Shown here: one piece after another, positions 59,296-60,141 of the stretch
How the letters are laid out: every line of letters starts with the position of its first letter
Numbering within the stretch: position 1 is the stretch's first letter
NCBI RefSeq assembly: GCF_003334765.1
Contig: NZ_QOWT01000012.1
Length of the DNA: 64,000 nucleotides
Direction: 5' to 3' (one strand)
Source: Escherichia coli
Lineage (GTDB): Bacteria; Pseudomonadota; Gammaproteobacteria; Enterobacterales; Enterobacteriaceae
The notes under the pieces: model-generated
What the model saw: the letters and a program-made list of their open reading frames with translations, nothing else
What the model was told of the DNA's origin: nothing
Database searches by the model: none
Made by a program: the position numbers and the translations under genes

Positions 59296-60141
59296 ATGGC
59301 TTACACAGCAACTGTTATCCCTGTAATGATTGCTTCTCCTGGTGATGTCGCTGAAGAGAGACAAGTCATTCGTGAAATGATCCATGAGTGGAATGATATA
59401 AATTCAGCTCGTTCAAAAGTAATGTTGACACCAATTGGATGGGAAACTCATACATCACCCGAATTAGGAGTTAGGCCTCAGGAGTTGATTAATCAAAGAT
59501 TATTAGTAGATTGTGATTTATTAATCGGTGTGTTTTGGACTCGTCTAGGCTCACCGACTGGGAACGAGGCCAGCGGAACAGTCGAAGAAATCCACCGTCA
59601 TTTGAATGCGGGAAAACCGGCAATGATTTACTTTTCCTCAAAGCCTGTTGCCCCTGAAAGCCTTGATAGAGAACAATATGAGTCTCTTAAATTGTTCAAA
59701 ACTGAGTGCATGCAAAAGGGATTGATAGAGTCTTTTAATGACTTATCTGATTTCAAAGAAAAAGTCCGTAGGCAACTTTCGATAATTATTTCTAGTAGCC
59801 CTTATTTGTCTTCTCTTATATCTACCATTAACAATTCTCCTGATGCGAATACAAGTCAATCTTTGCCAGAAAGTAATTTGTCCGCCGATGCACTCAGTTT
59901 GCTGAAATTAGCATGTGTCGATGATAGCGGAACAATTTATGTGATAAGGCATTTAGGTGGCACGGATATTCAAGCGGGAAATCAATCCTTTGGTGGAAGT
60001 TCGGCTAGAGAGGTAGCCCGTTGGGAGGGCGCACTTAACGAACTGTTATCCTTTGATTTTGTGATTGAAAGAGGGGCAAAAGGACAAATGTATTATGTTA
60101 CTCATAAAGGCTGGACATTTCTTGAATCTTTAAATGAATAA
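59296..60141 (+). CDS. 281-aa hypothetical protein with an N-terminal Rossmannoid nucleoside 2-deoxyribosyltransferase/LOG-SLOG-like domain
   Basis: Starts 13 bp after the recombinase stop (likely co-transcribed); AT-rich. Residues ~60-110 (DCDLLIGVFW…SGTVEEIHRHLNAGKPAMIYF) resemble the D…GT-x-EE…GKP signature of NDT/LOG-type domains; C-terminal ~100 aa unassigned. Confidence 0.5.
   Translation: MAYTATVIPVMIASPGDVAEERQVIREMIHEWNDINSARSKVMLTPIGWETHTSPELGVRPQELINQRLLVDCDLLIGVFWTRLGSPTGNEASGTVEEIHRHLNAGKPAMIYFSSKPVAPESLDREQYESLKLFKTECMQKGLIESFNDLSDFKEKVRRQLSIIISSSPYLSSLISTINNSPDANTSQSLPESNLSADALSLLKLACVDDSGTIYVIRHLGGTDIQAGNQSFGGSSAREVARWEGALNELLSFDFVIERGAKGQMYYVTHKGWTFLESLNE

Follow-up and report, generated by a model that had tools for sequence, protein, structure and literature searches.

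Two preprints from 2026 place DUF4062 proteins among the anti-phage defences of bacteria. Osinski et al. (bioRxiv 2026, 10.64898/2026.05.01.722283) describe DUF4062 as a TIR-like family of NADases, enzymes that hydrolyse nicotinamide adenine dinucleotide (NAD+), and report that five bacterial proteins coupling DUF4062 to an auxiliary (AUX) domain, one of them from Escherichia coli, protect E. coli from BASEL phages. Ibarra-Chavez et al. (bioRxiv 2026, 10.64898/2026.06.25.731849) describe Evangelion, in which one gene, coding for a DUF4062 core with a diversified AUX domain, provides a defence that is linked to depletion of NAD+, and they list Swarozyc and Eva02-04 as separate lineages. Here we compare with these systems an E. 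coli gene encoding 281 residues, found in a 64,000-nucleotide stretch of contig NZ_QOWT01000012.1 (the window, whose positions are used throughout). Its product combines a DUF4062-type N-terminal domain containing an invariant glutamate with a modelled C-terminal winged helix, and the gene lies in a mobile, defence-rich island.

In the Swarozyc protein KpSwz (WP_202404386), intertwined dimers make up an oligomer that is autoinhibited, and an AB-interface dimer is reported. Its AUX domain, of HTH (helix-turn-helix)/winged fold, attaches to the phage portal as a 13-mer crescent, which turns NAD+ hydrolysis on; portal also activates the NADase in vitro, where NAD+ is converted to ADP-ribose (ADPR) and nicotinamide. 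Infection lowers NAD+, the defence is abortive, and it is abolished by the substitution E97A or by loss of AUX. KpSwz and TEP1, a human DUF4062 protein, hydrolyse NAD(P)+ to ADPR(P) and nicotinamide, yielding only ADPR and no cyclic products (10.64898/2026.05.01.722283). Phage infection likewise lowers NAD+ in Eva01 cells (10.64898/2026.06.25.731849), and the catalytic glutamate is required in KpSwz, Eva01 and TEP1 (10.64898/2026.05.01.722283; 10.64898/2026.06.25.731849). Since the biochemistry and the defence role of DUF4062 were reported in 2026, the gene studied here opens no new category.

We consider it probable, at roughly 0.65, that the 281-residue protein is a single-protein abortive-infection system against phage, of Swarozyc/Evangelion type, acting as an NADase that depends on E98. 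A 'hypothetical protein' carried by ~7% of complete E. coli genomes, that of the probiotic strain Nissle 1917 included, would thereby gain a probable NAD+-depleting function in abortive infection.

The gene and its N-terminal domain

The open reading frame (ORF) and the peptide strings quoted from it in a first-pass annotation of the window are present exactly as described in the ORF list, and this is a real gene, not a chance ORF. The product is 100% identical to RefSeq WP_000331917.1, labelled 'hypothetical protein'. A word-indexed search returned 2179 homologues, and an exhaustive one gave 9483 cluster representatives at E<=1e-3, 1239 of which reach E<=1e-30. The complete architecture of ~280 residues and the N-terminus MAYxATV are kept throughout Gamma-, Beta- and Deltaproteobacteria, with identities of 40-65%. 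Of 5426 complete E. coli genomes, 388 carry the gene itself at 99% identity or more, on the chromosome in every case. The earlier description of the gene as markedly AT-rich is borne out by its GC content of 40.1%, compared with 50.5% for the adjacent recombinase gene and 54.2% for the core genome to the left of the tRNA gene described below.

The stop codon of that upstream recombinase gene occupies 59280-59282, and because only 14 nt separate it from the DUF4062 gene the two are likely to be co-transcribed. A sigma-70-like site was sought on the + strand between 58300 and 60900, and none was found. We also observed that the 90%-identity cluster of WP_000331917.1 includes 'recombinase family proteins' of 164-197 residues, which are the product of the upstream gene; presumably these entries are an artefact of fused or mis-called ORFs spanning the 14-nt gap.

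The AlphaFold2 model, built on a 78-sequence alignment, is confident (predicted local distance difference test score, pLDDT, 92.9). Its N-domain consists of five beta-alpha units whose five strands run parallel in one beta-sheet of flavodoxin/TIR-like fold, in the order beta1 (residues 6-13), alphaA (19-40), beta2 (42-47), alphaB (61-72), beta3 (75-80), alphaC (94-104), beta4 (109-114), alphaD (125-139), beta5 (143-147) and alphaE (150-167). On profile evidence the domain is a member of DUF4062. The Pfam model PF13271 matches residues 10-99 through model positions 2-79 of 82 (i-Evalue 3e-4), a model that is reported to span just half of the domain (10.64898/2026.05.01.722283). Among the matches listed, PF13271 is precomputed for roughly 40% of the close homologues, and several homologues carry the NCBI/UniRef name 'DUF4062 domain-containing protein'. 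The N-terminal 165 of the 906 positions of the PADLOC candidate profile PDC-S60 also match (E 5.8e-27), whilst searches of NCBIfam and PHROGs returned no match to the 281-residue protein.

Residues A13, D17, N33, W49, Q62, D74, G85, G94 and E98 are invariant in the 78 homologues, and S93, G94, E97 and I99 of the SGTVEEI motif are conserved at 96-100%. The two motifs flagged in the first-pass annotation, VDCDLL (with D74) and SGTVEEI, are thus the conserved ones, and the conserved glutamate it expected in SGTVEE is E98, present in 78 of 78 sequences; E97 is found in 76 (97%). E98 can be singled out because a DUF4062 protein from an Enterococcus plasmid, 35% identical over residues 4-162, has SGTIAEI opposite SGTVEEI and so retains a glutamate at the E98 position only. 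In the model E98 opens helix alphaC, behind the 13-residue beta3-alphaC loop, and on this sequence evidence it is predicted to be the catalytic glutamate. The annotation had instead pointed to an acidic residue after a hydrophobic strand; D72 and D74, however, precede beta3, and the relevant acidic residue is E98.

The same annotation called the N-domain a Rossmannoid resembling nucleoside 2-deoxyribosyltransferases (NDTs) or LOG proteins, and named TIR and DUF4062 as folds to compare. That it belongs to the TIR/NDT superfold of nucleotide-processing domains, with an invariant glutamate, agrees with the model, whereas membership of the NDT or LOG families does not hold. There is no profile match to NDT (PF05014) or to LOG/SLOG (PF03641, PGGxGTxxE), Pfam giving DUF4062 instead, and in the structural ranking TIR domains stand above, with members of the NDT superfamily interleaved just below (MilB 11.8, NDTs 11.6-10.5, Rcl 10.1) and no LOG protein among the top 60 matches. 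Domains of the ThsB and TIR-STING/TIR-SAVED type are among the structural matches. It is therefore unlikely that the N-domain works in the manner of NDT or LOG enzymes on some nucleoside or nucleotide that is not NAD+, for instance by hydrolysis of deoxynucleoside monophosphate (dNMP), cytidine monophosphate (CMP) or ATP, or by base exchange, which is in essence what the first-pass annotation proposed. The hydrolysis of NAD(P)+ by KpSwz and TEP1, and the loss of NAD+ from infected Eva01 cells, also speak for NADase chemistry rather than for such an enzyme.

The linker and the C-terminal winged helix

The stalk-like helix alphaF leads into a linker that is poorly conserved and modelled with low confidence (pLDDT <50 at residues 186-190). 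The C-terminal ~100 residues, which the first-pass annotation could match to nothing, are assignable: in the model they adopt a winged-helix fold, of the same kind as the Swarozyc auxiliary domain, and Pfam gives a faint winged-helix match at residues 247-281. The elements of this AUX domain are, in order, a helix (197-208), three strands arranged as hairpins (213-234), a second helix (237-252), the wing (256-268) and a last helix (270-280). Its resemblance to MarR-type regulators is one of fold only, as sequence matches to them have E>0.1 and the basic recognition surface is absent.

The charge of the domain bears on what it may sense. The AUX domain has a net charge of -5 and an isoelectric point (pI) of 4.85 (the family mean charge is -2.7), and the putative recognition helix 237-252 contains two basic and three acidic residues. 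On these sequence properties, the acidic domain fits protein binding better than DNA binding. An alternative, as proposed for Eva01, is that the effector and the defence role are the same but that the winged helix senses nucleic acid, such as phage DNA or replication and recombination intermediates. Given the acidic character of both domain and helix, and the report that the portal protein is bound by the AUX domain of KpSwz, which is expressly described as a winged helix, we regard a nucleic-acid sensor as rather unlikely and a protein sensor as the better reading.

The C-terminal domain evolves faster than the N-domain and is swapped as a module. Mean identity to the query across the 78 homologues is 54% in the N-domain, 19% in the linker and 34% in the C-domain. 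When E. coli alleles are compared, the DNA coding for the N-domain is 77-86% identical and that coding for AUX is not alignable. Three divergent DUF4062 alleles, with products of 281, 282 and 278 residues, occupy a single slot; as the effector half is conserved and the sensor half replaced, the series would be convenient for mapping the phage specificity of DUF4062 sensors. The 282-residue form, WP_000331919.1 (UniRef label Enterobacteriaceae), is 65% identical and comes from the same locus; at a guess, it may be the E. coli Swarozyc protein EcSwz tested by Osinski et al. (UPI0002A39D72, assayed alongside UPI001927123B).

In other homologues the N-domain is followed by different arrangements. 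Four of them (P0157, P0165, P0194, P0254) have two or three tandem AUX units, one (P0135) has AUX and another winged helix, one (P0239) has Sel1 repeats in place of AUX, and two (P0195, P0266) have unrelated tails. No description of a tandem AUX array was found in the sections consulted of either preprint (10.64898/2026.05.01.722283; 10.64898/2026.06.25.731849). When AUX alone was searched in a plasmid collection, matches occurred in DUF4062 proteins only.

Comparison with described systems and proposed mechanism

With Swarozyc the protein shares an architecture on a single polypeptide: an N-terminal DUF4062 domain of ~165 residues, whose glutamate is at alphaC, is followed by a helical stalk and then by an AUX domain of HTH/winged-helix type with beta-hairpins at the C-terminus. 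It also shares a home in enterobacterial defence islands. Evangelion, for its part, has a DUF4062 core and a diversified AUX domain that is needed for defence, is borne on mobile elements and is linked to NAD+ depletion. Going by the text of the Evangelion preprint, a W-E motif occurs in both (W49-E50 in the 281-residue protein, W51-E52 in Eva01), as does the catalytic glutamate, whereas F11, E87-Y88 and W162 of Eva01 stand against M11 and E98-I99 here, and alphaE/alphaF contains no tryptophan. Position 11 is F in 9 of the 78 homologues, and Y170 is the nearest conserved aromatic residue in the alphaE/alphaF region. The two differ further in that AUX is here a small acidic winged helix, and in host context, an E. 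coli chromosome as opposed to a staphylococcal plasmid. As regards canonical TIR NADases (SARM1, bacterial TIR effectors, ThsB), there is no match to a Pfam TIR family and identity to the 281-residue protein is 8-12%. They also have another auxiliary domain and assemble in another way, given the AB-interface dimer that is reported for KpSwz.

The mechanism that we propose takes its NADase chemistry, defence phenotype, autoinhibition and type of trigger from the preprints on homologues. In an uninfected cell the enzyme would be inactive, probably as an autoinhibited oligomer, with the stalk and the flexible linker joining the TIR-like domain (the 167 N-terminal residues) to the winged-helix sensor. 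On infection, AUX would bind a trigger made by the phage, which by analogy with KpSwz is most likely a multimeric structural protein, for example the portal. Binding of the trigger would relieve the autoinhibition of the TIR-like domain, and the ensuing E98-dependent hydrolysis of NAD+ to ADPR and nicotinamide would starve the infected cell.

A number of observations weigh against this reading. Firstly, the Pfam match to DUF4062 is weak (E 3e-4), Foldseek against the Protein Data Bank (PDB) returned only generic flavodoxin-like matches, and no significant match to a solved structure was obtained by sequence in the PDB copy searched with the single protein and with the full-length profile, a copy that evidently lacks the KpSwz and TEP1-TIR structures. 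Secondly, NADase activity is not universal in the family, since TEP1 was the only active NADase among the four human DUF4062 proteins tested (10.64898/2026.05.01.722283). Thirdly, a homologue in Kangiella sits between housekeeping genes with no defence neighbours, and no match to the family was found in 50,697 cultured phage genomes. Fourthly, D16, R18, D71, W176 and W238/Y239 of KpSwz do not map onto the family of the 281-residue protein, a comparison made from the residues stated in the preprint text, whose numbering appears to include 14 extra N-terminal residues. We tried to fit these residues and E97 under different offsets, and the fit fails given the five-stranded fold and the 15-C construct. 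The W-Y tip of the Swarozyc hairpin is likewise absent, the equivalent hairpin being A227-G228-N229, which is variable.

The last such point concerns loop length. About 12 extra residues lie between the W49-E50 motif and the catalytic glutamate relative to both the Pfam model (90 query residues for 78 model positions) and Eva01 (W51-E52 to E87), and next to Swarozyc, too, the part preceding the glutamate is longer by about 12 residues. Judged by the preprint descriptions, the protein probably belongs to a distinct, longer-loop DUF4062 lineage set apart from KpSwz and Eva01, and its substrate or trigger could therefore differ from those of KpSwz.

The leuX island and its cargo slot

A tRNA-Leu(CAA) gene lies at 54507-54591, with yjgR and ahr before it and a gene for a 650-residue integrase after it, and because of these flanks the location is the leuX genomic island of E. 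coli. The region is collinear with that of E. coli Nissle 1917. The features discussed are collected in Table 1.

Table 1. Positions of the DUF4062 gene, its parts and its neighbours in the window
Feature	Position	Strand	Basis or remark
ORF of 281 residues and stop codon	59296..60141	+	ATG start; ORF list
Shine-Dalgarno sequence GGAG	59287..59290	+	Direct sequence reading; 5 nt before ATG
DUF4062 TIR-like domain, putative NADase effector (residues 1-167)	59296..59796	+	AlphaFold2 model, profile match
Codons of E97-E98, N-terminus of helix alphaC	59584..59589	+	E98 is the predicted catalytic Glu
Helix alphaF (169-179, stalk-like) and linker (residues 168-196)	59797..59883	+	AlphaFold2 model
AUX winged-helix domain, putative trigger sensor (residues 197-281)	59884..60138	+	Fold comparison
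Serine recombinase (DNA-invertase-like), conserved left border of variable slot	58653..59282	+	NCBIfam and PHROG matches
Predicted membrane protein, ~165-183 residues	60202-60753	-	phrog_20749; convergent with the DUF4062 gene
HTH protein	60844-61401	+	N-terminal part similar to control (C) proteins of restriction-modification systems and to CapH; PADLOC E 1.9e-18
PDC-S32/AbiJ-NTD4 protein, 274 residues	62439-63263	+	PADLOC PDC-S32 E 5.6e-104; Nissle 1917 annotation AbiJ-NTD4

The DUF4062 gene fills a variable slot (59261-60202), which in other E. coli strains holds the 282-residue allele WP_000331919.1, an HNH endonuclease gene or two unrelated genes. Set beside the loci L006, L007 and L008, the window ceases to be homologous at about 59260-59278 and becomes so again at 60203 or 60877. 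The breakpoints lie inside the final codons of the recombinase gene and where the gene for the membrane protein has its stop codon. The HTH gene, whose C-terminal half (~80 residues) gave no match, is the conserved right-hand gene of the frame. We considered the membrane-protein and HTH genes as functional partners and rejected this; both persist when the slot holds other cargo (the HNH endonuclease), and they are therefore probably frame and not partners.

A Resolvase gene followed by a DUF4062 gene 14 nt further on is seen repeatedly, in Klebsiella, Enterobacter and E. coli. The enterobacterial frame consists of Resolvase (186 residues), the 14-nt gap, DUF4062, a convergent gene for a 165-residue membrane protein and the HTH gene, and in these three taxa it lies inside islands with a DUF6538-type integrase, beside Shedu-like (SduA_C), type I restriction-modification or DUF6119 genes. 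Outside the Enterobacterales the homologue stands alone, its neighbours vary and the recombinase is absent.

This distribution bears on two further alternatives. One is that the TIR-like domain produces a nucleotide signal (a cyclic ADP-ribose (cADPR) isomer or similar, as Thoeris ThsB does) that switches on a separate effector, in line with the ThsB, TIR-STING and TIR-SAVED type domains among its structural matches. Such a system would call for a partner gene, yet none is conserved. Neighbours vary by genus, and those that recur (the recombinase, the 165-residue membrane protein and the HTH gene) also persist with the HNH endonuclease as cargo. Together with the exclusive formation of ADPR by KpSwz and TEP1, this makes a signal-producing TIR very unlikely. 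The other has no part in defence: the protein would be a regulator that couples a receiver-like flavodoxin domain to the winged helix and controls the recombinase or functions of the island. A phospho-acceptor Asp is missing at the end of beta3 (W81 follows the strand), the conserved set D17, W49, Q62, D74 and E98 is TIR/DUF4062-like, the winged helix is acidic and the gene occurs without the recombinase outside the Enterobacterales, all of which render this regulator the least credible of the readings considered.

A defensive NADase, by comparison, would be in suitable company. The PDC-S32/AbiJ-NTD4 gene, 2.3 kb downstream of the DUF4062 gene and of about 37% GC, is a second defence candidate of the same island. 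Elsewhere, the homologue in Stutzerimonas follows a HEPN_RiboL-PSP gene, and that in Iodobacter shares a prophage-like stretch of DNA with ThsB_TIR-like, HNH and T5orf172 genes. The role in a conflict system suggested in the first-pass annotation thus appears to have been right, on the basis of the DUF4062 defence precedent and these defence neighbours. IMG/VR viral and prophage contigs contain 39 relatives, at least 8 of them no further than about 1.2 kb from where the contig ends.

As the recombinase is invertase-like, phase-variable inversion was also considered. It was rejected, there being no convincing inverted repeats, as the search turned up imperfect pairs of small size only, and no inverted arrangement among 875 E. 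coli genomes. The best inverted-repeat pair, 21 nt at 81% (59270-59290/60657-60677), is unrelated to the homology breakpoints. We hold it improbable that the slot immediately 3' of the recombinase gene serves specifically for the exchange of defence genes, or that the long-loop lineage, in which AUX modules can be repeated, uses a trigger or substrate not yet described. Should the recombinase itself prove to swap the cassettes, this would amount to an integron-like mechanism for shuffling anti-phage sensors.

Some minor features of the region may be recorded. A DUF1643 gene (58063-58392, - strand) is frameshifted in the window and in Nissle 1917 and intact in other strains. The strain of locus L007 has an additional gene, for a NUDIX hydrolase, between DUF1643 and the recombinase, and this insertion gives a second variable point near 58590-58600. 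On the far side, a 208-residue ORF (63312-63938, - strand; phrog_11802, E 7e-86) is an AT-rich island gene with a GC content of 35-39%. Finally, 'plasmid 2' of Salmonella Senftenberg NCTC10384 (L005, 4001-4573) carries a 190-residue DUF4062 fragment, 49% identical over residues 1-160, which has apparently been cut by an IS3 element and lies directly after a block of prophage terminase, portal and head genes.
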